Shown here: positions 12,634 through 31,121 of the stretch, one piece after another
Layout: every line of letters begins with the position of its first letter
Numbering within the stretch: position 1 is the first letter of the stretch
From: a virus
Lineage: Duplodnaviria > Caudoviricetes
Direction: 5' to 3' (one strand)
DNA length: 64,000 nucleotides
Virus record (IMG/VR): IMGVR_UViG_3300014202_000529
Span: 32,001 to 96,000 of that record
Notes under the pieces: generated by a model
Told to the model about the DNA's origin: nothing
The model's input: only the letters and a program-made list of their open reading frames with translations
Database searches by the model: none
Made by a program: the position numbers and the translations under genes

Positions 12634-12634
12634 C

Positions 12635-13626: not shown

Positions 13627-14821
13627 AATCCCTAACCGCTATCCCAACTGGGAAAATCGGAATACCTTCATCCGAAAGGGTTTGGTAACGAACGGTCAAT
13701 TGCTTCCCCATATATGATTTTCTGTTGTTCCACTGCTCTTCTCTCTCTACCATCGTAGCTTTACAGCGGACATCAAATGTTCCATCACCATATACCCCAC
13801 CGGTTTTTGATGAGGTTTGGCAACGAAAGATTGCTTTATGTTCGTCTTTACCCCTTCCATCCTTACATCCAACGATTTCAAATTCTTCATCGACAAAATC
13901 TTTATATTTCTGCAACTGGTTGTCTCGATACTGAAACCGATAAGCGTCATTCGAATCTGAGCGCACAATGGACCCCTCATACCCCTGCTCAACAAATATA
14001 CCATGCATCGCTTTCATTTCTGTCTCGTTCAGAACCACTACAGTTTTAACAAACGAGAGATAGGGGACGTTAAGACTGTTTGGGAGTTTCCCATGCCACA
14101 GGATATACCGCTTCTTAAACCCACCCTCTGAAGACGCTCGATCATAACAATGAAAGTGGACATGTTTCTTTAGTGTGTCAATGTCTGGGGTCTTTTCGTC
14201 CTTAATTGCAGAGATAAGCTGCTGGAAAGTCAAATCCCCATGATTATACATTTCACCATCAAGTATCTCACCATCCTTCATGAAAGAAAGAAACTGAGGG
14301 TTCATGTACAAGCTGAAGTTCTTATAGATTTTTCCTTTCCTGGACCAATAGAAAATATTATCTCCCTTACGCTCAACCAAGCAACGAACACCATTCAACT
14401 TTGGTTGGACGAATGCGGGCCACTGTATATACTTTTTCCGCTCGTTGAATTTTTGTGCCAACATCGGTAGAAGTTTGGAACCACCAACAGAACTTCCATC
14501 ATTGTCCTGTTCGTCTGTACCTTCACCAGACTTAGGAACAACCTCTGAATAATTCTTGTCATACTGCTTCTTTAATTTTGACTCCGCTTCCAAGCATGCT
14601 TGCACGAAATGATCCGTCTCGTTGGAGCGACCGATGTTTTTCCCCTCGGTGACCGTCTGGTGTGAAATCTGCATCTTCCCATTCATTTGACCGTGCTTGG
14701 TGAAAATGACAGAAGAATCCACTTTCCTCTCAACCCAAATCGTCCATACCTTCACCACACCTTTTGAGGAAAGACCATAGAGGATTGGATAGGTGGAAAT
14801 ATCGGGCATATTATTCTCCAT
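13619..14821 (-). CDS. ATP-dependent DNA ligase
   Basis: PMLA, QPKLNGVR (motif I), LDGEMY, GYEGSIVR, KYKDF, OB-fold C terminus. Confidence 0.93.
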   Translation of the reverse strand: MENNMPDISTYPILYGLSSKGVVKVWTIWVERKVDSSVIFTKHGQMNGKMQISHQTVTEGKNIGRSNETDHFVQACLEAESKLKKQYDKNYSEVVPKSGEGTDEQDNDGSSVGGSKLLPMLAQKFNERKKYIQWPAFVQPKLNGVRCLVERKGDNIFYWSRKGKIYKNFSLYMNPQFLSFMKDGEILDGEMYNHGDLTFQQLISAIKDEKTPDIDTLKKHVHFHCYDRASSEGGFKKRYILWHGKLPNSLNVPYLSFVKTVVVLNETEMKAMHGIFVEQGYEGSIVRSDSNDAYRFQYRDNQLQKYKDFVDEEFEIVGCKDGRGKDEHKAIFRCQTSSKTGGVYGDGTFDVRCKATMVEREEQWNNRKSYMGKQLTVRYQTLSDEGIPIFPVGIAVRDYE

Positions 14822-17006: not shown

Positions 17007-17081
17007 TGGTGGACCCTGTAGGTGCTGCCCCTACTGCCTCCGCAGTGTCAATGCGGCACTCTGCTGGTGAGCTAAGGGTCC
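17007..17081 (-). tRNA. tRNA-Val(GAC)
   Basis: Cloverleaf with CCA; non-canonical T-loop. Confidence 0.85.
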
Positions 17082-17171
17082 GTCTATATTGTGCGTCTAC
17101 TGGTTCAACATCCTCGTTCGCAACGATCTCTTTACTGTCTGCAAATCTTGGCATAATAACCTCACATTATA

Positions 17172-17247
17172 TGGACTCCCTGACAGGACTCGAACCTGCA
17201 TGTCTCTGGTTCGAAGCCAGAGTAGCTTCCATTGCTATCACAGGGAG
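17172..17247 (-). tRNA. tRNA-Arg(TCG)
   Basis: Cloverleaf, GTTCGA T-loop, CCA. Confidence 0.88.
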
Positions 17248-17657
17248 TGTAACACTTTTAACCATTCGTTGTCAAATACACAATTGTCTGGTGCATGACG
17301 AAACATTGGAGCAATTTGCTCATTCTTATATCCAGCAAGACCGCAACCAATACGAGTTACCAAAAACTCCAGTTCATTATTCTGGGATGCAAAAACAATA
17401 AATTCTTTCACATACGTCTCTATGATATCTAAGGGAAGTACCTCTAAGTGGTGTCCCTTTGTGGGAATTGCATAGGAATTCCCTTGCAACCCCTTTCCCT
17501 GCCCATACTTTGCACCGTAATAGGTTCGAGCATGTAGGGCAGCTCCAGCACCATGACGCCCAGCAAGGTTTGACCCAAATACAAATATTTTATGCGTACT
17601 CATAACCATTATCACCATACTCATATGGGACTTTATATTTCCCGTACAAATACCCAC
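17238..17657 (-). CDS. Macro-like phage protein (FVFGSNLAGRHGAGAA family); likely start MSTHK
   Basis: FVFGSNLAGRHGAGAA, SYAIPT, VTRIGCGLAG. Confidence 0.75.
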   Translation of the reverse strand: MGICTGNIKSHMSMVIMVMSTHKIFVFGSNLAGRHGAGAALHARTYYGAKYGQGKGLQGNSYAIPTKGHHLEVLPLDIIETYVKEFIVFASQNNELEFLVTRIGCGLAGYKNEQIAPMFRHAPDNCVFDNEWLKVLHSL

Positions 17658-17757
17658 ATGAACATCTAAATGGGGTATTGAGTGGTCCCTGTGGTGGATT
17701 CGGAAATTCTCTTTTGCATTTGAGACAAATAATAACTGGTGATTCCATGATATTTCA

Positions 17758-17952
17758 TTAACGAGGCTTAAAGAACATCAAAGAATCGGTAGCTTCCTCA
17801 AACATTTCTATACTTATTACACCCTGCAACTGCAATACATGAAAAGAATTCATAAGAAAAATCCACTTCTGCCATTCCAAATCTTCTCTAATTTCCTTGT
17901 CTGTGAAATCTTCCTTATGTCGGAAGTCTCTCTTAATCTCTGTTATCCTCAT
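17758..17952 (-). CDS. Hypothetical protein
   Basis: ORF with GAGG SD between tRNAs. Confidence 0.45.
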   Translation of the reverse strand: MRITEIKRDFRHKEDFTDKEIREDLEWQKWIFLMNSFHVLQLQGVISIEMFEEATDSLMFFKPR

Positions 17953-17971
17953 AGGAACTTCCTCACATGTA

Positions 17972-18046
17972 TGGTGCCGCTAGCAGGACTCGAACCTGCA
18001 TGGTCCCCTTTAGGAGAGGGGTGCATATCCTTTTTGCTATAGCGGC
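17972..18046 (-). tRNA. tRNA-Arg(CCT)
   Basis: Cloverleaf, CCA. Confidence 0.9.
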
Positions 18047-18053
18047 ATGAATT

Positions 18054-18131
18054 TGGTGCCCCCGGCAGGATTTGAACCTGCGTGGGTTCCGCTTAGAAGG
18101 CGGATGCCTTTCCAGACTAGACTACGGGGGC
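18054..18131 (-). tRNA. tRNA-Arg(TCT)
   Basis: Cloverleaf, CCA. Confidence 0.9.
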
Positions 18132-18140
18132 ATATGTTTC

Positions 18141-18231
18141 TGGCGGAAGACAGAGGACTCGAACCTCACCCCCGCATTGAGAGCCCTTCGTTTTCGAGAC
18201 GAGGCGACGCGGCCCGCGCCGTTTATCTTCC
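18141..18231 (-). tRNA. tRNA-Ser(CGA)
   Basis: Long variable arm, G73, CCA. Confidence 0.9.
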
Positions 18232-18236
18232 ATAAT

Positions 18237-18570
18237 TGGTGGAGGTGCGGGGCATTGCATCCCCGGTCCAAAAGTACTCTTGAAGTAGGATCTCCATGCT
18301 AATCAATCATTCTACGATCAACTGTGGATTGATACACGGTTGAAAGTTTTGAGGATAAATCTCGTATTCAGTACACCCCCAACTCCTGAATACCAGTCTG
18401 AATTTACGCCTCCCCACTTACAGACTTACATGAGTTGGCGCGAAGTGCGATTAAGCAGCGACGAGTTCTAGTTCTGCAGCAATTAATTGCTTCCATGTTG
18501 TTAACGGAGCCACGGAACTCCGGCATGCCCTCTCATTCTCCAGTTACCCCTGTCGATACTGTTCACCCCC
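18237..18570 (-). ncRNA. ssrA: tmRNA; tag (A)AAELELVAA*
   Basis: GGGGGUG/CACCUCC-ACCA acceptor with G3:U70, UCGAC 5' motif; tag ORF at 18451-18480. Confidence 0.92.
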
Positions 18571-18575
18571 ATGTT

Positions 18576-18791
18576 CTACTTAGGTTGTGGAATTTCTCTA
18601 CCTGCTTCTAATTCAGCTTCCACCCAGGATTTTGCAACCTCGTTTAGATTATCGAATGCTTCTTGTGCAGTTTCACCTTGAGCAAAACATCCCTCGAATT
18701 CAGAAATGAATGAGAAATACCCACCTTCCTCTTCTGGCACTATCACTCGTCCATACGGTCTTTTTAGAATCTCGTCCACTATCTGATTCAT
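18576..18791 (-). CDS. HicB-like antitoxin-fold protein
   Basis: PEEEGGYFSFISEFEGCFAQGET..EA..NL.E..K.W.EA.LE.GR.IP.P; ORF-track N terminus overlaps tRNA. Confidence 0.85.
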   Translation of the reverse strand: MNQIVDEILKRPYGRVIVPEEEGGYFSFISEFEGCFAQGETAQEAFDNLNEVAKSWVEAELEAGREIPQPK

Positions 18792-18807
18792 AACGTTACC
18801 CCAAATA

Positions 18808-18898
18808 TGGCGGAAGAGGGAAGACTTGAACTCCAATGCTAATGATAGCATCCCATCGCTTTCCAAGCGAGTCCGGCAGCCTCTCCGGTTCCTCTTCC
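18808..18898 (-). tRNA. tRNA-Ser(GGA)
   Basis: Long variable arm, CCA. Confidence 0.9.
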
Positions 18899-19045
18899 AT
18901 TAAACTTGTTCGGCATTCATATAAGTCTTGTCCATCAAAATATATGTGACACATGTATATGAAAGCTGGGGGCAATTAATCTCAGGATCACTAAAATTAA
19001 TCACCCCCGTATGCCCGCTTCCTCACATGGAGGCCGGGTCTGAAA

Positions 19046-19135
19046 TGGCGGAAGACAGAGGACTTGAACCCCATACCCTTTCGAGTACAATCCGCTTTCA
19101 AGGCGGTTGTGTTGACCCGCAACACTTTATCTTCC
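19046..19135 (-). tRNA. tRNA-Ser(TGA)
   Basis: Long variable arm, CCA. Confidence 0.9.
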
Positions 19136-19141
19136 ATATTA

Positions 19142-19216
19142 TGGTGCTCCTACTGGGTATCGATCCCAGTCTTCTAGATTGAGAATCTAGCGACCTAGCC
19201 AGTAGTCTATAGGAGC
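19142..19216 (-). tRNA. tRNA-Glu(CTC)
   Basis: Cloverleaf, CCA. Confidence 0.88.
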
Positions 19217-19220
19217 TATG

Positions 19221-19295
19221 TGGTGGACCGCCGCGGTATTGCGCCGCGTTCCTCCGGTTAAGAGCCGGGAGCTTCACTATTAAAGCTTGCAGTCC
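19221..19295 (-). tRNA. tRNA-Lys(CTT)
   Basis: Cloverleaf, CCA; atypical T-loop. Confidence 0.85.
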
Positions 19296-19325
19296 GTATT
19301 TATTTTAATAATTTAATAGTCAACC

Positions 19326-21161
19326 TTAATGAAAACAAATATATTCTCGTTGAGCATTTGCTGACATTTGCCACCACATTCCTAGTCCACATTGGGTTGC
19401 GCTAGCTGCATCATTAATGAACTCAAATTTCGATGCTTCTATTTCGAAATTATTTGTGCAAATATCATCCGAACAACTTGTCTCAAAATCTACAACAGAT
19501 TTAAACCCAAAGGATCGATACATTATAGGCAAGTGACCATTTGATACTATAAACCTATTCTTTCGTATAGTTTGTGCCCCAACGTTCAACTTATTTGGAA
19601 GATAGAGTGCCGCGTATTCTGCACCAGGGGTATCAAGTCCTCCACAATTTATAAATATATTTTCCTCAATTATATGATTGGAATTTGTAAAGTTACTAGC
19701 ATTAAATGATATGCATGGACTGGTTGTATTGTTTAGAAAAATATTCCGCTTAACAATATTGCCCTGTGAAGGTCCAGCATATCCCTGAAACTCAAGAACT
19801 TGTGAAATATTCTTCTTGGTAAGAAAAATCCCACCAATTCTTTGATTGGTGAATAAATTACCCTCAAGAAGATTTCCATTTCCATTAAACTGTGCGCGTA
19901 CAGTCATATTGACTATTTTATTATTCCGAAACACATTACCTGTTGCTGCATTTAATCTAGAACCATCAATACCAAATGGACGACAATATTCAACAAACCA
20001 CCGACATGTAAATACTGTGTTTGATACAACATTATTTCTAATCGTTGTTGTTCCGCGAAGTGCCTCCACACTAAATCCAGTGTGTTGCCAATCAATAATA
20101 ATTAGATCATGAAACGAGTTATCATGCGACCCTTCAGAGAGAAGAATTCCATCACCAGTTACTCCATTGAATTCGTGTGCGTAGCCGGCGATTGATTCGG
20201 GTAGTCTTGGATCGATATTACAATTAAAAATTTCAATATTCCTTGATTCTGTACCTGTCCCTCTGCCGGTTGAATCTGTGATATACACCCCACGATGGGA
20301 CCATCGCCCAATTTCACAGTCATTTGTTGTTTTTAATCCAAAAATCCGTATATCTGTCGCGCCTAAAATATAAACAGAACCAAGTCCACCACCACCAACA
20401 TTTGGATTTATAATATCAAAAAACTTATTATTTGCCCTCATAAAACAAAGGGCAGAAAACGAACAGGGTACATTGGTAGATGAGAGAGTTTTAACCACCA
20501 TCAATTTTATTGATGGATTTGATGTCGATGGTAAATATAATCGTTTATTGGGGGCATCAAACCACCATCCGCGAACCGGACCATTTGGTGTTGAGGATTG
20601 ACCCAAGAGAGACTTTACCTCAGACTGCATATGTTCAATGTCATTTAACCACACTCTTTTTGGTGGGTTAATATACGATGGTAGAGAAAGGTACCAAACA
20701 CCTTCACTTTCTTTTACCCAGTTGGCAGCCTGCAGCGCCTCGGTTAAAATTGTTTGATTAAGAATTCTACCTGGATTTCTGGGACAATCGAAACGAATTG
20801 TAATATGTCTGTCCGGCGTACCGGATGCAGAGGGTCCGACTAGAAATCCAGTAGTATGTAACCCACACACATAGACTGTATCCCCGGCATCAATTCCTGT
20901 TACTGGAGTCCAATTCAACCCACTGTCGGTTGAATTGAATGCACCACTCCCCCCCAATGATTCTGCGCATTCATATGAGAGTCCATTACCGTTAATGGAA
21001 CACTCTACTTTTGGTCTCACATACCACGTATTGTTGGCTTCAGACCCAACCAATGCTGGTGCTGGCGGATTAAGTGGGGTCCAAGATGCCCCCATAACTG
21101 TATATTGAACAAGAAACAATGATGAGGTTATTATTAAAAATAATATTGACAATAATTTCAT
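19326..21161 (-). CDS. Secreted right-handed beta-helix (pectin-lyase-like) protein
   Basis: Signal peptide MKLLSILFLII, TWYVRP, GDTVYVCG, N/I-rich beta-helix repeats; AT-rich. Confidence 0.7.
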   Translation of the reverse strand: MKLLSILFLIITSSLFLVQYTVMGASWTPLNPPAPALVGSEANNTWYVRPKVECSINGNGLSYECAESLGGSGAFNSTDSGLNWTPVTGIDAGDTVYVCGLHTTGFLVGPSASGTPDRHITIRFDCPRNPGRILNQTILTEALQAANWVKESEGVWYLSLPSYINPPKRVWLNDIEHMQSEVKSLLGQSSTPNGPVRGWWFDAPNKRLYLPSTSNPSIKLMVVKTLSSTNVPCSFSALCFMRANNKFFDIINPNVGGGGLGSVYILGATDIRIFGLKTTNDCEIGRWSHRGVYITDSTGRGTGTESRNIEIFNCNIDPRLPESIAGYAHEFNGVTGDGILLSEGSHDNSFHDLIIIDWQHTGFSVEALRGTTTIRNNVVSNTVFTCRWFVEYCRPFGIDGSRLNAATGNVFRNNKIVNMTVRAQFNGNGNLLEGNLFTNQRIGGIFLTKKNISQVLEFQGYAGPSQGNIVKRNIFLNNTTSPCISFNASNFTNSNHIIEENIFINCGGLDTPGAEYAALYLPNKLNVGAQTIRKNRFIVSNGHLPIMYRSFGFKSVVDFETSCSDDICTNNFEIEASKFEFINDAASATQCGLGMWWQMSANAQREYICFH

Positions 21162-21172
21162 AATTGATACCG

Positions 21173-21250
21173 TGGTGTCCCCGGTTGGATTTAAACCAAC
21201 GATCTCCACCTTCGCAGGGTGGCGTGATATTCGGGCTTCACTACAGGGAC
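21173..21250 (-). tRNA. tRNA-Arg(GCG)
   Basis: CCACC-CTGCGAA-GGTGG anticodon arm, CCA. Confidence 0.85.
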
Positions 21251-21256
21251 GTTAAT

Positions 21257-21353
21257 TGGTGCACCCCCAGTCCTTTAGGGACCATTATATCATCCAACAG
21301 ATTTAGCTCTATCTGTCTATGATGTTTCTTCACCCGCGTCCAGGTGAGGGTGC
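21257..21353 (-). ncRNA. Aberrant tRNA-like RNA with extended anticodon-position rod
   Basis: GCACCCU/GGGGUGC-A-CCA acceptor, CACC/GGUG D-like hairpin, GUCC/GGAC T-like hairpin, long bulged central stem. Confidence 0.6.
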
Positions 21354-21359
21354 TCTATT

Positions 21360-21434
21360 TGGTGCACGGTATAGGTACTGCCCCTATCTTGTCTCGCTTG
21401 TAAGGCGAGTGCATTCCTTCCCTGCCCACCGTGC
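21360..21434 (-). tRNA. tRNA-Val(TAC)
   Basis: Cloverleaf, CCA; atypical T-loop. Confidence 0.85.
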
Positions 21435-21435
21435 G

Positions 21436-21645
21436 TTAGTCGATAATTCTATGGTCTTCGTATATGTCAATTGCTTGCTTTAACTGCTTTCTAATCTCTC
21501 TTGTATTACCTTTTTCAGCAAGCAACTCAATCTCAAGCTTATGTATGCGCTTCATCAACTTCATGCATCCAGGAATAGCTTCTTGTTCACAAGCAATAAG
21601 TTCCTGTCTATGCCGTTTTCCTAGCTTCATCCAATCACTAGACAT
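21436..21645 (-). CDS. Hypothetical protein
   Basis: MSSDWMKL start with GGAG SD. Confidence 0.5.
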   Translation of the reverse strand: MSSDWMKLGKRHRQELIACEQEAIPGCMKLMKRIHKLEIELLAEKGNTREIRKQLKQAIDIYEDHRIID

Positions 21646-21657
21646 AATACTCCACAA

Positions 21658-21734
21658 TGGAGCCGCTTGTTGGACTTGCACCAACCATCTCCACTTTACC
21701 AAAGTGGCGTGTCAACTACCTCTACTTAAGCGGC
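21658..21734 (-). tRNA. tRNA-Thr(GGT)
   Basis: Cloverleaf, CCA. Confidence 0.87.
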
Positions 21735-21751
21735 GTAAACTTATTTATAAA

Positions 21752-22063
21752 ATAGGACAACATGTAAGCGGCGTTCTGTTTACAATCATCATTTCTCTAG
21801 GAGTATCATTACTGATACCCTCAAGCTGCCTACCCGCGAGTTTTGTACGAGCAGTACACTCGCCTATTTGGCATTGCACCAGGTAGAGATTGCCCGTTTC
21901 ACTTCCTCATCATCGAGGAGCGATGAACCCCCTCATTGATGATGATTACTCGTCTCTGTAGCTCTAATCATCAGGTTACCCTGTGTGGTCGTTAACCACT
22001 ACCATGCTCTAGGTGCGCCGACTTTCCTCTAGCTGTGTGCTAGCGATGATTCTGTTGTCCTAT
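21752..22063 (-). ncRNA. rnpB: RNase P RNA (catalytic subunit)
   Basis: P1 AUAGGACAACA/UGUUGUCCUAU; GAGGAAAGUC (CR-I), ACAGAGA, GUGAAACGG, AGAAAUGA, AACAGAA-CGCCGCUUA (CR-V). Confidence 0.93.
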
Positions 22064-22077
22064 AATCTCCTTTCATG

Positions 22078-22154
22078 TGGTACCTGGGGTGGGACTCGAA
22101 CCCACAGGAATCTGTTTTTGAGACAGACATGTTTGCCAATTACATCACCCAGGC
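22078..22154 (-). tRNA. tRNA-Leu(CAA), short variable arm
   Basis: Cloverleaf, A73, CCA. Confidence 0.85.
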
Positions 22155-22336
22155 AATTTTTCTAATACCTTATTCCCCATAATTAAGTTTGCATCAAGAA
22201 CCCTAAGCTCACTTGCGACATTAAATGCGACCACCCAATCTTCCTGAGTCACCGCTTCCTGCAATTCAGATTTTAACCGTTCTCGATTTTCTTCTAGGAT
22301 GTTCACTGCAACTTCAAATGCTCTCCGTTCTGTCAT
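22145..22336 (-). CDS. Small UVR-like coiled-coil protein
   Basis: LKSELQEAVTQEDWVVA...A.ELR. Confidence 0.45.
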   Translation of the reverse strand: MTERRAFEVAVNILEENRERLKSELQEAVTQEDWVVAFNVASELRVLDANLIMGNKVLEKLPG

Positions 22337-22337
22337 A

Positions 22338-22733
22338 TTATACCCCCACAGAAGACTGAATAGCAATGCCAAACATTTTGTGGTGCTGATCAATATAATA
22401 GTTGTTATACTTAGGGACCCCAGATTTACCCGAAGGTCCATCAGCATATTCCATCTCTACTGTTAGAAATGCCCCTTCGGATAACCTCTTAAATTGCATT
22501 TCGGCATTATACTTATAAGTTTGTCTCAATTCGTAGGGGATTCCTAGAGTGTCAAAGAGTATCCTATTTCTCATCCCGCGCTTTGGACAAACGATATGTA
22601 ATTCACCAGGTAACCAATAATCACCCGCTGTGCAACTGTAAGGTCTCACATACCAATGAGTCTGGACCGCTATACAATTCTTGAACATGTGTGTAGAACC
22701 ACAACCACATTGAAATCTTTTGTTCTTGTACAT
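22338..22733 (-). CDS. Hypothetical protein
   Basis: ORF with GAGG SD. Confidence 0.5.
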   Translation of the reverse strand: MYKNKRFQCGCGSTHMFKNCIAVQTHWYVRPYSCTAGDYWLPGELHIVCPKRGMRNRILFDTLGIPYELRQTYKYNAEMQFKRLSEGAFLTVEMEYADGPSGKSGVPKYNNYYIDQHHKMFGIAIQSSVGV

Positions 22734-22749
22734 ATGTCCTCATAATATA

Positions 22750-22828
22750 TGGTGCCGTGGGTGGGAGTCGAACCCACAAGCGAATCGTTTTAAGCGACCC
22801 AGGTATGCCAAATTCCCTTCACCACGGC
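22750..22828 (-). tRNA. tRNA-Leu(TAA), short variable arm
   Basis: Cloverleaf, CCA. Confidence 0.85.
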
Positions 22829-22829
22829 A

Positions 22830-22904
22830 TGGAGCCCAAGTCCAGATTTGCGCTGGATCTTACAGTTTACGAAACTATCGTGCCACTATCAACACTTCAT
22901 GGGC
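22830..22904 (-). tRNA. tRNA-Thr(CGT)
   Basis: Cloverleaf, CCA. Confidence 0.82.
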
Positions 22905-22909
22905 ATATA

Positions 22910-22984
22910 TGGTGGGTTGGCTAGGTACTGCCCCTAGTTCCTCCGGTTAAAAGCCGGGAGCTTCACTTACAAAGCTTACAACCC
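22910..22984 (-). tRNA. tRNA-Lys(TTT)
   Basis: Cloverleaf, CCA; atypical T-loop. Confidence 0.85.
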
Positions 22985-22986
22985 AA

Positions 22987-23125
22987 AATCGCTTGCATTG
23001 CTACCGTTACAACAAAAAGACTGTTACCCACTGTCTCTGATGCATGCAGGGATTCTTCCTCTCTAGAATCAGAAGAATCTATCGTGGATACCGTCTTCTA
23101 CGGAGTTGAACCGTTCCGCAAGTCA
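22987..23125 (-). ncRNA. Circularly permuted tRNA-like RNA 1 (YrlA-like architecture)
   Basis: Order: CUUGC, T arm ACGG-UUCAACU-CCGU, AGAAGAC, insert, GUCUUUU, D arm UUGU-AACGGUA-GCAA, GCAAG. Confidence 0.7.
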
Positions 23126-23141
23126 AAAATATTTCTTACGA

Positions 23142-23217
23142 TGGAGCGGGCTATGGGAATTGCACCCATACGTCCAGGTTGGAAGCCTAGCATGCTGCTG
23201 TTGAACATCAAGCCCGC
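23142..23217 (-). tRNA. tRNA-Gly(TCC)
   Basis: Cloverleaf, U73, CCA. Confidence 0.88.
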
Positions 23218-23275
23218 ATATGATCGGAATTTTAACACATCACCCTACGTCTGTCAATACTATATCGCCAGTTTT

Positions 23276-23350
23276 TGGAGCGGATGGTGGGAGTCGAACC
23301 CACGTGATCTTCCTTGGCAAGGAAGCACATAACCGTTCTGTCACATCCGC
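23276..23350 (-). tRNA. tRNA-Gly(GCC)
   Basis: Cloverleaf, CCA. Confidence 0.9.
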
Positions 23351-23352
23351 AA

Positions 23353-24375
23353 TTAAACTTGATTAATGTGTCTCATGAACTTCTTCGTCTCAACCCACCA
23401 AGGCATATTCTCATCCCAGTCTACCACATCCCAACTACCAGTCCAAATTATCACACCATCTGCAATCTCATGAAGGACTTGAAGCTGCAATGCCCAAAAT
23501 TCCGGTTCAACTAACCTTAACCCATTAGGGGGTGGAAGAGAATTGTGATACCTTGGCCATATAAAAGGATATATGGGTTTATCACCTGCATATCTCCTGG
23601 CTTCTTTAATATTTTCTACCGCGTATCGAACCCAACTATCCCAAGGGTCATTTCTTAGTACATACAAGGATGGTGCAAGAAAACTGACTTTATCCACTAC
23701 AGACTGAACGAGTGCGTTTTCTGACTGCCACCTATTGTATCCACTCACTCTTCGTATTGCTCGATCATAATCCCGACGAGGCAAAAACCCATACATCCCC
23801 AAGTTCATGGTGGGTTTTATTTCCCGCATCCAATCAAAAACTTGGATATGATTCGCTCTCTGTTGCGCCCCAAACTCATCATCCGTATAAAACTGGTAAC
23901 TCTCAATGTCGGTGATAATTGGGGTGTCATCATCATACTGAAGTGCATTGTTTGCAATATTCTTAACTGTTCCCTCATGGGGAAGAGCTAAATGATCCGG
24001 TTGACCATTGAAAAATGTATTCTCGAAATAGATTCGCGCTCGTTTGATGCCATATAACCCCAAAAGATCCGGTTTATTCAGATAGGGGGTTGTGTCGAAA
24101 ATTCTAAACGGGTGCGTTTTAAGTTTTTTTCGGGTCTGTCGGACATCTTGCTCTAAGCTTCTGTCCCACCCCGTACCGTTCCACCGATATATTTTACCAT
24201 CCCGTTGATCGATCCGATGAACCCCTGTGTGTCCTGGGGTTAGGTTTTCTATTTCTCTGTCGCCATATTGATATGCTGCAGTCCAATTTGTCAGTACCGT
24301 TGGATCATTATTCGCTTTCAACCAAAGAACTTTATCATTAGAGTGATAAAATAACTCCCCGTTCCACCTAGACAT
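23353..24375 (-). CDS. Putative glycoside hydrolase-like (hyaluronidase-like TIM barrel) protein
   Basis: IITDIES, GMYGFLP, FLAPSLY, KPIYPFIWPRYH, ADGVIIW. Confidence 0.5.
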   Translation of the reverse strand: MSRWNGELFYHSNDKVLWLKANNDPTVLTNWTAAYQYGDREIENLTPGHTGVHRIDQRDGKIYRWNGTGWDRSLEQDVRQTRKKLKTHPFRIFDTTPYLNKPDLLGLYGIKRARIYFENTFFNGQPDHLALPHEGTVKNIANNALQYDDDTPIITDIESYQFYTDDEFGAQQRANHIQVFDWMREIKPTMNLGMYGFLPRRDYDRAIRRVSGYNRWQSENALVQSVVDKVSFLAPSLYVLRNDPWDSWVRYAVENIKEARRYAGDKPIYPFIWPRYHNSLPPPNGLRLVEPEFWALQLQVLHEIADGVIIWTGSWDVVDWDENMPWWVETKKFMRHINQV

Positions 24376-24525
24376 GTTACTTCTTACACTCTGAGCAAGG
24401 GTACCAGTATCCTATTGTACCATTGACGCAAAGATGAGCATTCATATGATCGAACTCCGCCTCCTTGCGCGATGGCGATTTCTTTTTAGTATTCCTGCTC
24501 ACATGAACCTCCATAATATAATAAA

Positions 24526-24600
24526 TGGTGCGAGGTCGGAGAATCGAACTCCGGTGTCAGGCTCTTCAGGCCCGCGCTTTGCCAACTAAGCTAACCCCGC
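24526..24600 (-). tRNA. tRNA-Phe(GAA)
   Basis: Cloverleaf, CCA. Confidence 0.9.
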
Positions 24601-24604
24601 ATAA

Positions 24605-24682
24605 TGGCTCCGGTCCCAGGGATCGAACCTGGCTCATTCCGCATTAACAGTGCGGCGCACTCACCCTGAGTGCTAGACCGGA
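24605..24682 (-). tRNA. tRNA-Asn(GTT)
   Basis: Cloverleaf, CCA. Confidence 0.9.
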
Positions 24683-24700
24683 ATAATCTCTATTCAATTT

Positions 24701-24776
24701 TGGTAGGGACACCTGGGCTTGAACCAAGTCTTAAGGTTTCAGAGACCTTCGTGCTCCCAATTACACCATATCCCCA
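24701..24776 (-). tRNA. tRNA-Gln(CTG)
   Basis: Cloverleaf, CCA. Confidence 0.88.
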
Positions 24777-24779
24777 CTA

Positions 24780-25106
24780 CTATCGTGCATGTTTAGGTAA
24801 TATTTCAGGGAAATACCTAGGGCACAAATAAACCATCAGTATCACAACAATAATACTAGAACCCCCCAAACCAAAGACCACGGACCAATCCCAATCCAAC
24901 CCCCACCCTCTAATAGTGGTGAAAGTTATAGATTTTCCTATGATAACCCCCAGACCCAACCAAATAGCAAACCAAAGTAACCAATCAGAAACCATAGCAA
25001 CAAACATTCCACAAACAATAAACAATGCTCCCATAGTTTTCCCAACAACCCCAAATTCATCAAGCAACTCATTAAGTTGATTGTCATTCATTACAAAGCT
25101 CCCCAT
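24780..25106 (-). CDS. Membrane hypothetical protein
   Basis: Three hydrophobic segments. Confidence 0.5.
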   Translation of the reverse strand: MGSFVMNDNQLNELLDEFGVVGKTMGALFIVCGMFVAMVSDWLLWFAIWLGLGVIIGKSITFTTIRGWGLDWDWSVVFGLGGSSIIVVILMVYLCPRYFPEILPKHAR

Positions 25107-25608
25107 TAAACCATTTAAAACGTAACTTAACTTCTTCTAGAGCAATGGGTTTATATTCGGTCTGCTCAACACAAACACACACATACCACGGATCATCTAG
25201 AACATTTGCATGTGTGTGACCATGAACATTTGCAACAAATCTTCCCTTACTCTCAGGATGCACTGGAATATGGGATAACAGCATCCTATCGAGAATGTGA
25301 TATCCTCGAATATCACGAAAATGCTTCAGGTAATCGGTGATCTTGAAGATATCATGATTACCCTTAATTAAAACCTTGTCACCATTCAATCGTTGCAAAA
25401 CCGCTAATGCTTTTCTAGCAATAACCACATCCCCCAGGTGATACACTTTATCATTCGGACGGACAACCTTGTTCCATTCCTGGATCATGTATTCATCCAT
25501 TTCCTCTGGTGAATCCCACGGTCTCAGTTTGGTACCGTCATTTCTGAGGAACTTACAGACCCCAGCATGACTAAAATGTGTATCGGCTGTAAGAAATATG
25601 TTACTCAT
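25084..25608 (-). CDS. Calcineurin-like phosphoesterase
   Basis: TADTHFSH, YHLGDV, KGNHD, LSHIP, NVHGHTH. Confidence 0.92.
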   Translation of the reverse strand: MSNIFLTADTHFSHAGVCKFLRNDGTKLRPWDSPEEMDEYMIQEWNKVVRPNDKVYHLGDVVIARKALAVLQRLNGDKVLIKGNHDIFKITDYLKHFRDIRGYHILDRMLLSHIPVHPESKGRFVANVHGHTHANVLDDPWYVCVCVEQTEYKPIALEEVKLRFKWFNGELCNE

Positions 25609-25612
25609 AATA

Positions 25613-25686
25613 TGGCCGGGACACTCGGTAACGCTCCGAGTCCAACTGGTTCAAAGCCAGCTATGCTTCTTTTACACCATGTCCCA
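25613..25686 (-). tRNA. tRNA-Gln(TTG)
   Basis: Cloverleaf, CCA; atypical T-loop. Confidence 0.83.
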
Positions 25687-25972
25687 AAAACTGATCCAAT
25701 CCTTCTTTATTTGCGAGTCTCTTTAACGTTTCTGCATGACACCGTTTTGGTGCACAATGACACTTGAGATTCTTACCAACCAACGGATCTAACCAATTGG
25801 GGTCTTCTTTTAATCTCTTCGTTGCATACTCTTCAAACTCATCACATACTCTGTTGCGTTCCTCAAGAGTATCTATGGTCATTATGAAGGGGTTACCCCA
25901 AGGAGTTGATCGATCCACCAAGACCGCTCGACTCATGACTCCTTCAACATCTCTGATATGGTAAATCTTCAT
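25661..25972 (-). CDS. DUF4326-family protein
   Basis: VDRSTPWGNPF, L.GKNLKCHCAPKRCHAETL. Confidence 0.85.
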   Translation of the reverse strand: MKIYHIRDVEGVMSRAVLVDRSTPWGNPFIMTIDTLEERNRVCDEFEEYATKRLKEDPNWLDPLVGKNLKCHCAPKRCHAETLKRLANKEGLDQFLGHGVKEA

Positions 25973-25976
25973 AATA

Positions 25977-26066
25977 TGGCGGAAGATACAGGATTTGAAC
26001 CTGTGTGGGAGTTACCCCGCATTGTTTAGCAAACAAGCCCGTTTAGCCAGACTCCGGCAATCTTCC
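25977..26066 (-). tRNA. tRNA-Ser(GCT)
   Basis: Long variable arm, CCA. Confidence 0.9.
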
Positions 26067-26073
26067 TCGTCTA

Positions 26074-26148
26074 TGGAGTCGCCGATAGGACTCGAACCTA
26101 CATACAACTGCTTTGCAGGCAGCGACCTAGCCTTTCAGTCACGGCGAC
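26074..26148 (-). tRNA. tRNA-Cys(GCA)
   Basis: Cloverleaf, U73, CCA. Confidence 0.9.
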
Positions 26149-26153
26149 ATATA

Positions 26154-26229
26154 TGGCGCGCCCGATGGGTAACGATCCCACTTCATTCCTGATTGACAAT
26201 CAGGCGTCCATCCTACAGACTCCGAGCGC
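26154..26229 (-). tRNA. tRNA-Asp(GTC)
   Basis: Cloverleaf, G73, CCA. Confidence 0.85.
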
Positions 26230-26243
26230 ATTCTATTATTTTC

Positions 26244-26327
26244 TGGTGGACCATCAAGGAATCGAACCTTGTGGGAATTAACGACTGGTTTACAGCCAGC
26301 CCCGCCTCCATAACGGTCTAATGGTCC
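26244..26327 (-). tRNA. tRNA-Tyr(GTA)
   Basis: Cloverleaf with extended variable region, CCA. Confidence 0.87.
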
Positions 26328-26335
26328 ATAAATCT

Positions 26336-26432
26336 TGGGTGCCTAGGTCCCCGGTTATTTCCAGACTGGGGGGACTCCACGAATGTCTGGCCAGATGTTC
26401 CCATGTCAACACCCTGGGGAACCCGCGACTCT
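26336..26432 (-). ncRNA. Putative ~100-nt GC-rich structured RNA behind its own promoter
   Basis: TTGACA-17-TAGAAT upstream; GGUUCCC/GGGGACC and CCAGAC/GUCUGG stems. Confidence 0.45.
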
Positions 26433-26477
26433 ATTTCAGATTCTAACACACCATCGGGAACATGTCAACTACTAATT

Positions 26478-26567
26478 TGGTCCACCCGTTAGGAATCGAA
26501 CCTAAACGAGGCTCCAATCTAGAGCGAGGGGTTTATAAGACCCCCTTGCCTCCAAGGCGCGGGTGGA
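26478..26567 (-). tRNA. Atypical tRNA with UAU anticodon (allo-tRNA-like; long V arm, tiny D arm)
   Basis: GGGGU-CUUAUAA-ACCCC arm, GCUC-UAGAUUG-GAGC variable arm, GCCU-UGG-AGGC D hairpin, CCA. Confidence 0.75.
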
Positions 26568-26576
26568 TATTTTATT

Positions 26577-26652
26577 TGGTGCCTGTGGTAGGATTTGAAC
26601 CTACACTTGACGGCTTCTAAGACCGTTGACTCTGCCGTTGGTCTACACAGGC
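26577..26652 (-). tRNA. tRNA-Leu(TAG), short variable arm
   Basis: Cloverleaf, CCA. Confidence 0.87.
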
Positions 26653-26657
26653 GATAT

Positions 26658-27116
26658 TTAAAATTTCTTACTGACTTCATTTGAAAGGGGACTCAAGTTT
26701 CCCTTTGCATCCTTCGCTTTCAGTGCAAAGTAATATGTAGCACCTTTCAAGATCCCTGTCAACTTCAATTCTGTTACTAACCCAATTTCAATTGGTGTCT
26801 GATACTTTCCCGGCTCCAGACCCCAATACACCAGATACCCACTTGTTACCCCATCAACCGGTGGAGCCCATGTTAATGTTGCTTCCCCCATAATCACTAC
26901 AGGTGGGGTTGCTGCTGCGATTTCAGCAAGCATTGCATCTTTACCACCAGGATTCGACCATGATTTACCTACAAACTTACCAGAGTGGCATTCATATACA
27001 TTCGACTTATTGTTGTTATGACACCCATATGAATCCAATGCACCAGCATGTGGAAACGCTGAGGAGGCACTAAGGAATAAGAACAATGTGGCAACCACAC
27101 TCACTATAATATTCAT
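26658..27116 (-). CDS. Secreted YHYH-like plus fibronectin type III domain protein
   Basis: Signal peptide, HAGALDSYGCH..YECH, TLTW..P..GYLVYWG..YYFALKA.D..GN.S..SNEV. Confidence 0.8.
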   Translation of the reverse strand: MNIIVSVVATLFLFLSASSAFPHAGALDSYGCHNNNKSNVYECHSGKFVGKSWSNPGGKDAMLAEIAAATPPVVIMGEATLTWAPPVDGVTSGYLVYWGLEPGKYQTPIEIGLVTELKLTGILKGATYYFALKAKDAKGNLSPLSNEVSKKF

Positions 27117-27130
27117 ACATCCTCCGGTTA

Positions 27131-27204
27131 TGGTGGCGGTAGAAGGAGTTGCACCTTCTCAGTACGACTTATGAAATCGTCTGGCTGCGCTTGTGCTTAC
27201 CGCC
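27131..27204 (-). tRNA. tRNA-Met/Ile2(CAT)
   Basis: Cloverleaf, CCA. Confidence 0.78.
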
Positions 27205-27210
27205 TTTATA

Positions 27211-27286
27211 TGGTAGCGGGTTAACGAGTTGCACGTTAAACTCAAGGTTATGAGCCTTGACGGGTCGCTGTCCCCTTCCACCCGCA
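27211..27286 (-). tRNA. tRNA-fMet-like (CAT)
   Basis: Unpaired 1:72, GGCTCATAACC anticodon arm, CCA. Confidence 0.8.
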
Positions 27287-27292
27287 AATTTT

Positions 27293-27420
27293 AAAACTGA
27301 GAGGCCGTGCTTCCGTTACACCACATTCCTACGTTACCGATCTTACTGGTGGCCATCCAGGAGTCTTAATTCATGATCGGTGTTCAGAACAATCGGATTT
27401 GAACCGTTCCTGCCCCGTTA
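27293..27420 (-). ncRNA. Circularly permuted tRNA-like RNA 2 (YrlA-like architecture)
   Basis: Order: GGGGC, T arm CGG-UUCAAAU-CCG, acceptor-like stem closed by an ACCGAUC/GAUCGGU insert, D arm GUGU-AACGGAA-GCAC, GCCUC. Confidence 0.7.
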
Positions 27421-27497
27421 TGGTGCCTCTGGTAGGACTCGAACCTACACTAAACAGGCTCTCGACCTGCCGACTCTGCCAATTGGTCTACAGAGGC
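27421..27497 (-). tRNA. tRNA-Leu(GAG), short variable arm, C33
   Basis: GCAGG-TCGAGAG-CCTGT arm, CCA. Confidence 0.83.
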
Positions 27498-27501
27498 GAA
27501 A

Positions 27502-27579
27502 TGGTCTGGGCGGCAGGATTTGAACCTGCGATTTCTCGCCTCCAAAGCGAGAGGAGTGGCCGGACTCTCCTACACCCAG
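27502..27579 (-). tRNA. tRNA-Pro(TGG)
   Basis: Cloverleaf, CCA. Confidence 0.9.
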
Positions 27580-27587
27580 ATATATTT

Positions 27588-27662
27588 TGGCGCTCCTTGT
27601 GGGTATCGATCCCACTTCATATGCTTGAAAGGCATATATCCTAGCCAGTAGACGAAAGGAGC
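27588..27662 (-). tRNA. tRNA-Glu(TTC)
   Basis: Cloverleaf, CCA. Confidence 0.87.
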
Positions 27663-27670
27663 AAAAATTT

Positions 27671-27744
27671 TGGTGGACCTTGACGGTAACCCTCCGTCCC
27701 CGCCCGGGTGCAAACCGGGAATGCTCGTTCAACACCTAAGGCCC
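27671..27744 (-). tRNA. tRNA-Ala(TGC)
   Basis: G3:U70, CCA; atypical T-loop. Confidence 0.82.
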
Positions 27745-27751
27745 AATACCC

Positions 27752-28005
27752 ACCATTTAACCTCCACGAAGCAGGAGGCACCATCTTTCTGGGGTCCATA
27801 AGGAGAGTCCCAGAAATTAAGCTGGTGGACTTACTTACCGTCTAAGGGTATCTAGTGAACCAATCTAGCCCTTTATCGGCTACGGAGCGATCCACAACCC
27901 CTAGACTACCTCTATCTATGTAACCCCCGCACCACGTCTTTGAAGCCGATCCAATCCAATTTAACGGCGCGAGCGACTTCCTCTAACAATGATACTGAGG
28001 GGTCC
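27752..28005 (-). ncRNA. Putative ~250-nt structured RNA between tRNA-His and tRNA-Ala
   Basis: CUCGCGCCG/UGGUGCGGG, GUCUAGGGG/CCCUUAGAC with GUGGA/UCCAC pseudoknot, UUCUGGG/CCCAGAA, GCCUCC/GGAGGU. Confidence 0.55.
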
Positions 28006-28079
28006 TGGGGTGATCGGTGGGTAATGCTCCCACTTTTCCTGGGCCACAACCAGGCGCATTTCTTTTATGCTACGACCAC
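28006..28079 (-). tRNA. tRNA-His(GTG)
   Basis: Cloverleaf, C73, CCA; no encoded G-1. Confidence 0.85.
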
Positions 28080-28084
28080 AACTG

Positions 28085-28275
28085 ATCCACTATTTTTCAA
28101 GTGGAAATTGTTACCCCTTTACCCCACCGTGCGTAATGAGAACCACCGCAACAAAGGCAGTGGAAGAGATAACTCCATCGATCCGGGTCTCATGGAGCCG
28201 GAAATTGCGGGCATTTGATGGGTAGCGCCCTACTACCTTAGTGCAGTCTTCCTCTTGCGGAGTAGTTTCTGCCAC
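28085..28275 (-). ncRNA. Putative ~190-nt structured RNA between tRNA-Thr and tRNA-His
   Basis: CCGCAA/UUGCGG, CCGG/CCGG crossed with CUCCAU/AUGGAG (H-type pseudoknot); no ORF on the coding strand. Confidence 0.5.
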
Positions 28276-28276
28276 A

Positions 28277-28352
28277 TGGAGCCGCCAACTGGACTTGCAC
28301 CAGCCTATTCCTGCTTACAAGACAGGCGATCAACTATCTGACCCATAGCGGC
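28277..28352 (-). tRNA. tRNA-Thr(TGT)
   Basis: Cloverleaf, CCA. Confidence 0.87.
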
Positions 28353-28403
28353 ATATCTCTTTTAACACATAAACCAACAGTATCGTCATTGACGCATAGA
28401 CCA

Positions 28404-28507
28404 GTGTATTGGGTGCAGGATTTCTGGGATGGTGTGCCCAAAGCCTACCTGCGCTTCTCACGGTGCACCTACTGAGTGTGCTTGGTGTTTACACTAACCC
28501 AATACCC
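28404..28507 (-). ncRNA. Putative ~105-nt multi-stem RNA directly after the HNH stop
   Basis: GUAUUGGGU/ACCCAAUAC closing stem enclosing GCAC/GUGC and GCAGG/CCUGC arms. Confidence 0.5.
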
Positions 28508-28513
28508 CGTTTC

Positions 28514-29047
28514 CTATTTCAATTCGACATTCCAGTACAAGTAATCTGCCCATGTTTCTGGCATCTTGCGCAATCCCAACGTCACTGTTACCACTTGGGA
28601 CCATACTGGTTGCTTAGGTTTCTTGAGCAACTTCATTCCTGCTTGCTCTGGTGTCCTACCCTCTTTCTTAGAGTTACATGGGACACATGCCGTTACAATG
28701 TTCTCCCAAGTCTTCGTTCCACCCTGAGCAACCGGTTTCACGTGGTCAAATGTCAACTCTTCTGATTCAAACTTTTGAGCACAGTACTGGCAATGAAAAC
28801 CGTCCCTAGTGAAAATGTTCAAACGAGTAAATTTCACTGGTGCTTTTCTGCGAAAACGAACCGGAACCAACATCCTCAACACCGAAGGAATCTTCATGCT
28901 AAACGAAATAGAATGGATTTCCTCTTCGTGCTCTTCAATAACTTCTACTTTACCAGTCCAGAGCAAAGTGATTGCTCGCTGCCAATTGACAACTTGTAGA
29001 GGTTCATATGAGCTGTTCAAGAGCAATGTCATATGCATGATAACCAC
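28514..29047 (-). CDS. HNH endonuclease (McrA-like)
   Basis: LLLNSSYEPL, RDGFHCQYC, TFDHVKP..QGG..TWENIVTAC..CN.KK; own promoter TTGACA-17-TAGAGT. Confidence 0.93.
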   Translation of the reverse strand: MVIMHMTLLLNSSYEPLQVVNWQRAITLLWTGKVEVIEEHEEEIHSISFSMKIPSVLRMLVPVRFRRKAPVKFTRLNIFTRDGFHCQYCAQKFESEELTFDHVKPVAQGGTKTWENIVTACVPCNSKKEGRTPEQAGMKLLKKPKQPVWSQVVTVTLGLRKMPETWADYLYWNVELK

Positions 29048-29099
29048 CCTCCAGTTTCCACTACTCTAACACACCACAATTCACTTGTCAACTAGTATT

Positions 29100-29173
29100 T
29101 GGCATGGGATGCAGGAGTCGAACCTGCGCCGGCTGTTTTGGAGACAGCAATGCTACCGTAACACTTATCCCAT
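29100..29173 (-). tRNA. tRNA-Trp(CCA)
   Basis: Cloverleaf, CCA. Confidence 0.9.
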
Positions 29174-29178
29174 ATATT

Positions 29179-29252
29179 TGGTACGCCTCCACAGAATTGC
29201 ACTGTGATCTCCCGCTAATCAGGCGAGGGTACTGCTGTTGTACGAGAGGCGT
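29179..29252 (-). tRNA. tRNA-Ile(GAT)
   Basis: Cloverleaf, CCA. Confidence 0.85.
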
Positions 29253-29261
29253 ATTAAATTT

Positions 29262-29336
29262 TGGTGGAGGCTGGCGGTTCTGCCCCGCCGACTTCTCGGT
29301 GCAAGCGAGATGGTTTCCTAATTAGCCTAAGCCCCC
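29262..29336 (-). tRNA. tRNA-Ala(TGC), first gene of the array
   Basis: G3:U70, CCA. Confidence 0.85.
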
Positions 29337-31108: not shown

Positions 31109-31121
31109 CTTTCACTATAAA

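Follow-up and report, generated by a model that had tools for sequence, protein, structure and literature searches.

A class A RNase P RNA gene in the transfer RNA array of a T4-like phage genome

Results

An rnpB gene among phage tRNA genes

The stretch of DNA analysed here – 64,000 nucleotides (nt), hereafter the window – comprises bases 32001-96000 of a 168,789-bp IMG/VR virus record (IMGVR_UViG_3300014202_000529) that has direct terminal repeats, with a measured length of 91 bp, and is rated 100% complete by CheckV. On its minus strand, inside a long array of transfer RNA (tRNA) genes that also holds a transfer-messenger RNA (tmRNA) gene, lies rnpB, the gene for the RNA of ribonuclease P (RNase P). 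The genes concerned are as follows:

21749..22062, minus strand: rnpB, RNase P RNA of class A, 314 nt, without P13/P14 (RF00010 match)
22078..22154, minus strand: tRNA-Leu(CAA), separated by a 15-nt spacer from the 5′ end of rnpB (ARAGORN; RF00005, 61.1 bits)
21661..21734, minus strand: tRNA directly downstream of rnpB after a 14-nt spacer, anticodon GGU (Thr) as read by eye, T-loop UGCAAGU (RF00005, 43.4 bits with permissive filters; not in ARAGORN)
21173..21250, minus strand: tRNA-Arg(GCG), conserved downstream marker of the Leu(CAA)-rnpB-Arg(GCG) block (ARAGORN)
18237-18570, minus strand: tmRNA, between tRNA-Ser(CGA) and the next tRNAs (RF00023, 100.8 bits, cmscan)
17010..29336, minus strand: the whole tRNA/tmRNA array holding rnpB, its presumed substrates (ARAGORN, Rfam)

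The initial annotation, made from the letters alone, had placed a compact RNase P RNA of about 312 nt at 21752-22063, within the tRNA array, and had proposed a covariance-model search as a check. That search – cmscan of the 64-kb window against 4227 Rfam families – returned a match to RF00010 (RNaseP_bact_a) at 22062..21749 on the minus strand, no more than 3 nt from the earlier coordinates and well over the gathering score (208.1 bits against 100, E 5.2e-66). RF00010 is the best-scoring family of clan CL00002 for this RNA, and the alignment spans model positions 1-367 without truncation; the possibility of an attP-like rnpB fragment is ruled out, the gene being full length. The placement within the array was also borne out, with tRNA-Leu(CAA) 15 nt upstream and a tRNA recognized by RF00005 14 nt downstream. 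This is the single RF00010 match in the whole 168,789-bp phage genome, and its score falls inside the range (199-224 bits) of five chromosomal bacterial rnpB genes measured with the same model. The RNA has a G+C content of 47% and a predicted fold with a minimum free energy of -106.2 kcal/mol (z -4.26), which none of 100 shuffled sequences equalled. Gene and genome are both genuine: the one encodes a full-length class A RNase P RNA, the other is that of a phage.

One further observation concerns the opposite strand, where an open reading frame (ORF) of 140 amino acids, 21464..21886, overlaps rnpB; it runs against the main coding strand, the minus strand, which has 118 of the 134 ORFs of more than 150 amino acids as against 16 for the plus strand.

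Architecture of the RNA

Four elements of the RNA are referred to repeatedly below:

22016..22024, minus strand: P4 5′ strand AAGUCGGCG, RNA positions 39-47, holding the bulged U (structure mapping)
21766..21773, minus strand: P4 3′ strand CGCCGCUU, RNA positions 290-297, inside ACAGAACGCCGCUUA (alignment, structure mapping)
21921..21976 (approximate), minus strand: core of the specificity domain, with the P10/P11 5′ strand, J11/12 (ACAGAGACGAG) and the start of a long P12 (cmscan alignment)
21830..21837, minus strand: L15/J16-15, CGGGUAGG, holding the GGU motif and invariant in 5/5 phage copies (C227-G234 of the first sequence)

When the Rfam consensus structure is mapped on the 314-nt RNA, 78 of its 81 pairs are standard. 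Helices P1, P2, P3, P5-P12 and P15-P18 can be drawn, together with the P6 pseudoknot (GAGCA/UGCUC, 5 of 5 pairs), and the catalytic-domain helices P1-P3, P5, P6 and P15-P18 all align to RF00010.

The P4 helix deserves separate treatment. AAGUCGGCG and CGCCGCUU form eight standard pairs out of eight about the bulged U, and the resulting pseudoknot joins the conserved regions GGAAAGUC... and ACAGAA...GCUUA, as is characteristic of class A. Relative to the family consensus, GUCCGGG/CCCGGCUU, two pairs are flipped, one from C-G to G-C and one from G-C to C-G. For comparison we used bacterial genes recovered by scanning with the conserved phage block, a procedure that gave at least 120 loci, of which 89 passed a motif filter, and whose sample is biased by the pattern. 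Among these 89 bacterial genes listed, one of the two flips occurs in seven chromosomal Burkholderiales genes, which read GUCGGGG/CCCCGCUU, while the second (GUCGGCG/CGCCGCUU) occurs in none of the 89 among the matches listed. Both flipped pairs fall at variable positions of what we take to be the universal P4 consensus, GNAANNUCNGNG. The earlier description of a compensated non-standard P4 therefore holds in its first half, the compensation being real; the helix is only partly non-standard, because one of its flips is also found in chromosomal Burkholderiales rnpB.

The small size of the RNA has a single source: model positions 160-202 (43 positions), which correspond to the P13 and P14 hairpins of a bacterial control rnpB that has both, are replaced by 0 nt. 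The same gap is present in all five bacterial rnpB genes that we aligned (from Halobacteriovorax, Betaproteobacteria bacterium GR16-43, Burkholderiales, Limnocylindrales and Flavobacteriaceae), and the three of those genomes that were checked have exactly one RF00010 match each. In most of the 89 bacterial genes listed, moreover, the spacing is too short for P13/P14. From these sequences, class A RNAs without P13/P14 seem common in bacteria. The compactness noted in the initial annotation thus stands as a measurement, but it is not peculiar to the phage: loss of P13/P14 as a phage-specific trait is ruled out by the five bacterial genes, the gap itself being defined by the control that retains both hairpins. 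Bacterial loci without P13/P14 are L347, L357, L368, L396 and L420.

Stacked P13/P14 helices are cited as a hallmark of class A, as against P10.1 of class B (PMC1874661). The window rnpB lacks this hallmark. Its absence does not in practice exclude class A membership, since five of five bacterial genes scoring 199-224 bits share the gap. By its sequence the gene is a member of RF00010 in every tested feature but P13/P14; what is new is where it is encoded.

The specificity domain is otherwise present, with P7-P12 and the conserved J11/12 and J12/13 stretches. P12, a long hairpin with a 20-nt insert, reaches approximately 21905; GUGAAA comes next and leads straight into the 3′ strand of P11. 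The J11/12 and J12/13 stretches that flank P12, ACAGAGACGAG and GUGAAACGGGCAA, are presumably the module that reads the T-loop of the substrate; both also occur in Betaproteobacteria bacterium GR16-43, with which the stretch GUGAAACGGGCAAUCUCUAC is identical, and GUGAAA is as in bacterial genes. In the catalytic domain, the GGU of L15 is kept, a motif that we take to pair with the 3′ CCA of tRNA in class A enzymes.

The tRNA and tmRNA array

ARAGORN finds 28 tRNAs, all on the minus strand, between window positions 17172 and 29252, and a search of the window with all Rfam families finds 22 tRNAs and the tmRNA. Because permissive Rfam searches recover genes that ARAGORN misses, the array holds at least 33 tRNA genes rather than 28. 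The tRNAs or tRNA-like matches found with Rfam only, all on the minus strand, are:

21661-21734, 43.4 bits (the gene directly downstream of rnpB)
17010-17081, 45.0 bits
29265-29336, 41.9 bits
27134-27204, 29.3 bits
23148-23215, 30.2 bits
22913-22984, 28.6 bits

CCA is encoded by all 28 of the ARAGORN tRNA genes, and the tmRNA gene lies 3.2 kb from rnpB; on both counts the putative substrates fit the ribozyme.

The initial annotation had drawn attention to non-canonical T-loops, and these exist: in 9 of the 28 ARAGORN tRNAs the T-loop does not start with TTC. It reads ATCGATA in both tRNA-Glu, ATCGTTA in Asp, AGCGTTA in Gln(UUG), AGCATTA in His, TGCAA(C/G/T)T in Met, Thr and Ile(GAU), and TTTAAAT in Arg(GCG). 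The accompanying suggestion that the ribozyme is tuned to such T-loops finds no structural sign, the stretches flanking P12 being the same as in bacterial rnpB.

Related copies in other phages

Relatives were sought by scanning IMG/VR viral contigs for P4 motifs, followed by RF00010, and by a portal-based search. With 14-15-mers taken from the two P4 strands, 97 and 34 stretches were obtained; after a partner-motif filter RF00010 confirmed L076, L080, L106 and L112, and did not confirm L120, which had also passed the filter. An exact 31-mer of rnpB had 0 matches in viral contigs, and among the matches listed for the pattern GGTGCAANNCCAAATA in the same contigs none passed the motif filter; a longer pattern gave four loci, one of them new. 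In a BLAST search against GenBank phages the rnpB genes of the window, L133 and L346 had no match, and the copy from Stenotrophomonas phage DLP6 described below matched DLP6 alone. The principal copies are:

G001: 134.9 kb record, rnpB 286 nt, 191.5 bits, portal 77%
G002: 176.3 kb, complete, rnpB 303 nt, 176.6 bits, portal 77%
G007: 168.1 kb, complete, rnpB 330 nt, 191.1 bits, portal 82%, found by the portal search
L346/G313: 176.2 kb, complete, rnpB 300 nt, 179.6 bits
G003 and G004: identical 408-nt rnpB, 159.5 bits

Portal identity to the window phage is 73-82% across G001, G002, G007 and G008; G313, G003 and G004 belong to another phage type, since they have no portal homologue. The distinction is mirrored in gene order. 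In the window, G001, G002 and G007, rnpB follows tRNA-Leu(CAA) and precedes tRNA-Arg(GCG), and in L346 and G003 it occupies a different block, Asn-Phe-rnpB-Ser(UGA). RF00010 found no match in four of the five portal-search records, namely G008 (complete) and three fragments.

The nearest phage copy is 77% identical to the window rnpB, which is the most complete and top-scoring of the T4-like clade. P12 ranges across the phage copies from 56 nt down to almost nothing. P4 varies and is compensated in G007 (GUUCGGGG/CCCCGGCUA), in L346 (GUCCGGA/UCCGGCUU) and in DLP6 (GUUCGCGA/UCGCGGCUA). The 408-nt form (L133:1501-1908 and L134; G004 and G003) carries an insert of about 140 nt in P12, and its P4, as read by eye, is interrupted at the centre by a G-G mismatch (GUCGGGG against CGCCGCUU).

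A reduced copy is present in a cultured phage. In Stenotrophomonas phage DLP6 (KU682439.2:105774-106022; locus L223:1501-1749) a 249-nt RF00010 match of 54.7 bits (E 3e-17 for the genome), under the gathering score, lies in an unannotated gap between the AAY80_165 coding sequence and tRNA-Arg(CCG), downstream of Gly(GCC) and Leu(CAA), and ends 3 nt ahead of tRNA-Arg(CCG). Here about 49 nt stand in for some 140 model positions of the specificity domain; P1-P4 and P15-P17 align, and P4 is fully compensated in a by-eye reading of the alignment. The DLP6 copy thus resembles that of the window in its homologous array position – Leu(CAA)...rnpB and then Arg – in its compensated P4, and in belonging to a T4-like phage with terminal repeats, and differs from it in length and score (249 nt and 54.7 bits, against 314 nt and 208.1 bits). 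The published account of DLP6 describes 30 tRNAs and direct terminal repeats, and its main text holds 0 occurrences of RNase P, rnpB or tmRNA (PMC5349666). If the DLP6 copy is orthologous, as its neighbouring genes suggest, the common ancestor would have had a full specificity domain, which DLP6 then lost.

Covariation

Evidence that the structure is maintained came from five phage copies (window, G001, G002, G007 and L346), compared on the Rfam-derived structure with P4 and P6 added. Mean column identity in the five-copy alignment is 70%; CGGGUAGG, the cores of P5 and P8, and the bulged U of P4 are invariant. Bases pair in 89.2% of 443 cells, a figure that drops to 33-43% on sliding the 3′ partners by 1-3 columns. 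Both sides have changed in 47 of the 94 pairs, as against 6-11 in the slid controls and a mean of 21.4 in shuffles, none of 500 of which reached 47. P4 is 100% paired in all five copies with 5 of its 8 pairs changed on both sides, and the corresponding counts are 7/7 for P2 and 7/8 for P18. Across the catalytic helices pairing ranges from 68 to 100%, and P7-P11 reach 88-100%; the lowest values (68-77%, in P3, P6 and P17) are partly due to the poor MAFFT alignment in those regions. RNAalifold, unaided, predicted P1, P3, P4, P5, P7-P9, P15, P16 and P18, with 37 of 66 pairs compensatory. Judged by these patterns of substitution, rnpB is kept by selection in the related phages.

Relationship to bacterial genes

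A quick maximum-likelihood tree was built from 91 rows, comprising 85 of the 89 bacterial genes (those of 250-480 nt) and six phage copies. The window, G001, G002 and G007 form one clade with a support of 99 (Shimodaira-Hasegawa-like approximate likelihood-ratio test, SH-aLRT) on a stem of 0.62. This clade lies inside a set of 36 rows (20 Chloroflexota, 8 Pseudomonadota, 1 Margulisiibacteriota, 1 Planctomycetota and the 6 phage), and the nearest bacterial row among the matches listed is the betaproteobacterium GR16-43, at a path length of 1.75. Long branches and compositional bias were flagged in this tree.

Against the 89 bacterial genes listed, blastn finds 40-nt blocks at 90-95% identity and 70-73% identity over 83-176 nt. 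In Burkholderiales, the sole order sampled, matches occur in 55 of 301 genomes, with identities of 65-93% over 29-241 nt; those with the best scores have 70-80% over 83-170 nt. A near-identical bacterial rnpB was found neither in the 301 Burkholderiales genomes nor among the 89 bacterial genes listed. The absence of a close bacterial copy, the long stem of the phage clade and the G+C content of the window rnpB (47%, against 62-67% in the nearest bacterial forms, from Burkholderiales and Limnocylindrales) argue for long residence in phages rather than a recent pick-up or contamination. That the source was betaproteobacterial is a hint only, because the tree was flagged and the bacterial sample is biased by the search pattern.

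The phage genome and the question of RnpA

The genome codes for a T4-type DNA polymerase (phrog_262, E 5e-303), tail sheath, large terminase and portal, together with an SbcC-like nuclease, a DnaB-like helicase and ribonucleotide reductase; the window itself codes for RtcB, an ATP-dependent DNA ligase and nicotinamide phosphoribosyltransferase. Portal comparison puts Stenotrophomonas phage DLP6 nearest among named phages (51.8%), ahead of T4-like cyanophages (about 50%).

Several other features of the window may be recorded here, all on the minus strand:

11431-14821: RtcB and the ATP-dependent DNA ligase, near the tRNA array
29852-33675: three tandem paralogues of 412-418 amino acids with an N-terminal match to phrog_36222 (unknown function), one of which has a weak match to a baseplate-wedge connector
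51765-53723: a cellulose-synthase-like GT2 glycosyltransferase with a C-terminal PilZ domain

RNase P in bacteria pairs its RNA with the protein RnpA. A six-frame search of the whole phage genome for RnpA (PF00825) gave 0 matches at E<=1, the same search being positive in 10 of 14 control genomes; the cognate RnpA gene that would belong to a bacterial RNA-plus-RnpA holoenzyme was thus not found in this genome. Host RnpA is the natural candidate for the partner, should the RNA have one, because the phage genome has no homologue of its own, and the earlier proposal that the phage borrows it is likely to be correct. Such borrowing may be viewed alongside a review which describes bacterial RnpA proteins and P RNAs as interchangeable across species (PMC4919922).

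Discussion

A phage genome encodes a full-length class A RNase P RNA. We think it probable that this is a functional gene, vertically inherited in a T4-like lineage whose members carry large tRNA arrays. In favour are the score of the RNA, its conserved order among tRNA genes in related phages and the covariation of its helices.

Four considerations weigh against it. The covariation was measured on five related sequences, and sets of this kind can outdo shuffles even where no structure exists; with so few sequences, and related ones, significance is overstated by the shuffle control. (Both the slid controls and the pair counts favour the structure.) The DLP6 homologue, at 54.7 bits and with most of its specificity domain gone, could mean relaxed selection in part of the lineage. 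G008, a complete relative of 178.6 kb (portal 73-75%, locus L155), has no RF00010 match at E<=10, from which it follows that rnpB is dispensable for such phages. Finally, host RNase P RNA is commonly considered stable and sufficient for the processing of T4 tRNAs, so that the benefit of a second copy is uncertain.

Some of these observations could also be accommodated if the gene were a passenger: a bacterial rnpB captured together with tRNA genes, unneeded, and drifting towards loss. The complete relative without a detectable copy, the 249-nt version that is all DLP6 retains, and a P12 that shrinks from 56 nt to almost none among the copies are what a decaying relic might leave. A pseudogene, though, would lose its pairing. 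The phage copies are at least 23% diverged, yet 89% of cells still pair and 47 of 94 pairs have changed on both sides, P4 among them; the score of the window copy equals that of chromosomal genes, synteny holds in four phages, and even in DLP6 the P4 helix is, by eye, still fully compensated. We therefore regard decay as an improbable account.

A second alternative grants the RNA a function and denies it the need for catalysis of its own: as a decoy or regulator, it would soak up host RnpA or compete with host RNase P, and so redirect host tRNA maturation or shut it down. Since the phage has no RnpA, its RNA must indeed compete with host M1 RNA for the protein, and the gain from a second catalytic RNA is not obvious. 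What is conserved or covarying, however, includes parts that do not bind protein – the P4 core with its bulged U, the GGU of L15, P6, P7-P11 and the flanks of P12. Conservation of this kind fits substrate binding and catalysis, whereas a decoy would be free to lose such parts, and we consider this explanation very unlikely.

That the gene is an assembly chimera or host contamination, with a bacterial rnpB joined by the assembler or mis-binned, is scarcely credible: the record does come from a metagenome and class A rnpB is otherwise cellular, but direct terminal repeats close the contig, which is rated complete, the gene stands 14-15 nt from phage tRNAs on the strand that holds 118 of the 134 longer ORFs, three independent related assemblies and the cultured, Sanger/Illumina-finished DLP6 have it in the same place, and a close copy was present in no bacterial genome searched.

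If, as we favour, the gene is functional, its mode of action may be envisaged as follows. The rnpB RNA would be co-transcribed with the neighbouring tRNAs in a multi-gene precursor; its 5′ end would be generated by 3′ processing of tRNA-Leu(CAA), 15 nt upstream, and its 3′ end by RNase P, cutting where the tRNA 14 nt downstream begins. The RNA would then adopt a class A ribozyme fold, its catalytic domain complete and its specificity domain lacking P13/P14, bind host RnpA (the phage encoding none), and remove the 5′ leaders of the 30-odd CCA-encoding phage pre-tRNAs and of pre-tmRNA. The result would be that maturation of the phage translation RNAs depends less on the supply of host rnpB during infection. 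Possible benefits may include capacity when an array of 30-plus tRNAs is transcribed all together, independence of host rnpB transcription after host shut-off, and a wider host range.

Comparison with known systems helps to define what is unusual. The RNA resembles bacterial class A RNase P RNA (E. coli M1 RNA/rnpB) over the full model at 208 bits, in P1-P12 and P15-P18, in P4 and P6, and in the GGU of L15; it differs in being virus-encoded, in sitting within a tRNA array with spacers of 14-15 nt, and in having no cognate RnpA gene. Archaeal type A RNAs likewise lack P13/P14 and keep the rest of the specificity domain, but the phage RNA keeps P18 and the bacterial CCA-binding loop of L15, and scores as bacterial class A. 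Among organelles, the RNase P RNAs of yeast mitochondria (RPM1) and of plastids and cyanelles (rnpB) offer a parallel, in that a small genome keeps the RNA subunit while the protein comes from elsewhere; RPM1, moreover, has tRNA genes on either side and is cut from a transcript shared with them. Those genes are endosymbiont-derived and reside in a permanent organelle, whereas the phage gene is found in a lytic-type virus and is dispensable in at least one relative. The tRNAs and tmRNAs of large phages (Al-Shayeb et al. 2020, PMC7162821) resemble the array described here in being RNA genes that support translation and lie together on a single strand; a processing ribozyme would add a further layer of autonomy. 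The main text of that paper has 0 occurrences of 'RNase P' or 'rnpB'. More generally, our literature search, which had subscription-only papers outside its reach, turned up no account of an RNase P RNA encoded by a phage or other virus, and look-ups of the relevant terms gave none in PMC11143913, PMC7191817, PMC6409571, PMC7824862 and PMC13282480.

A broader reading can be offered tentatively, and we would put it somewhat short of an even chance. The rnpB gene may have been heritable since before the split between DLP6-like phages and this clade (portal about 52%), giving rise within a single lineage to a series of shrinking ribozymes, all with a compensated P4, released in part by their own activity and able to use any host RnpA. 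The series itself, which we advance with the same reserve, could run from the 314-nt RNA of the window, through the P12-poor forms of about 300 nt in G002 and in L346 (the latter from an unrelated second phage group), to the 249-nt RNA of DLP6. Were this true, it would amount to a natural experiment on minimal RNase P under conditions in which the substrates co-evolve with the enzyme.

There are practical consequences. No other copy in the clade is as canonical as that of the window, which makes it the best choice for an activity test and for complementation of bacterial rnpB, and DLP6, a cultured phage whose reduced copy is unannotated, brings the biology within reach of laboratory tests. Annotation of phage genomes should include RNase P models, and matches below threshold that fall inside tRNA arrays deserve inspection. 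RNase P RNA is among the few ribozymes common to all cellular life and has been treated as strictly cellular or organellar; a phage rnpB would extend the translation functions that viruses encode – tRNAs, tmRNA, the RtcB ligase – to the maturation of tRNA 5′ ends.

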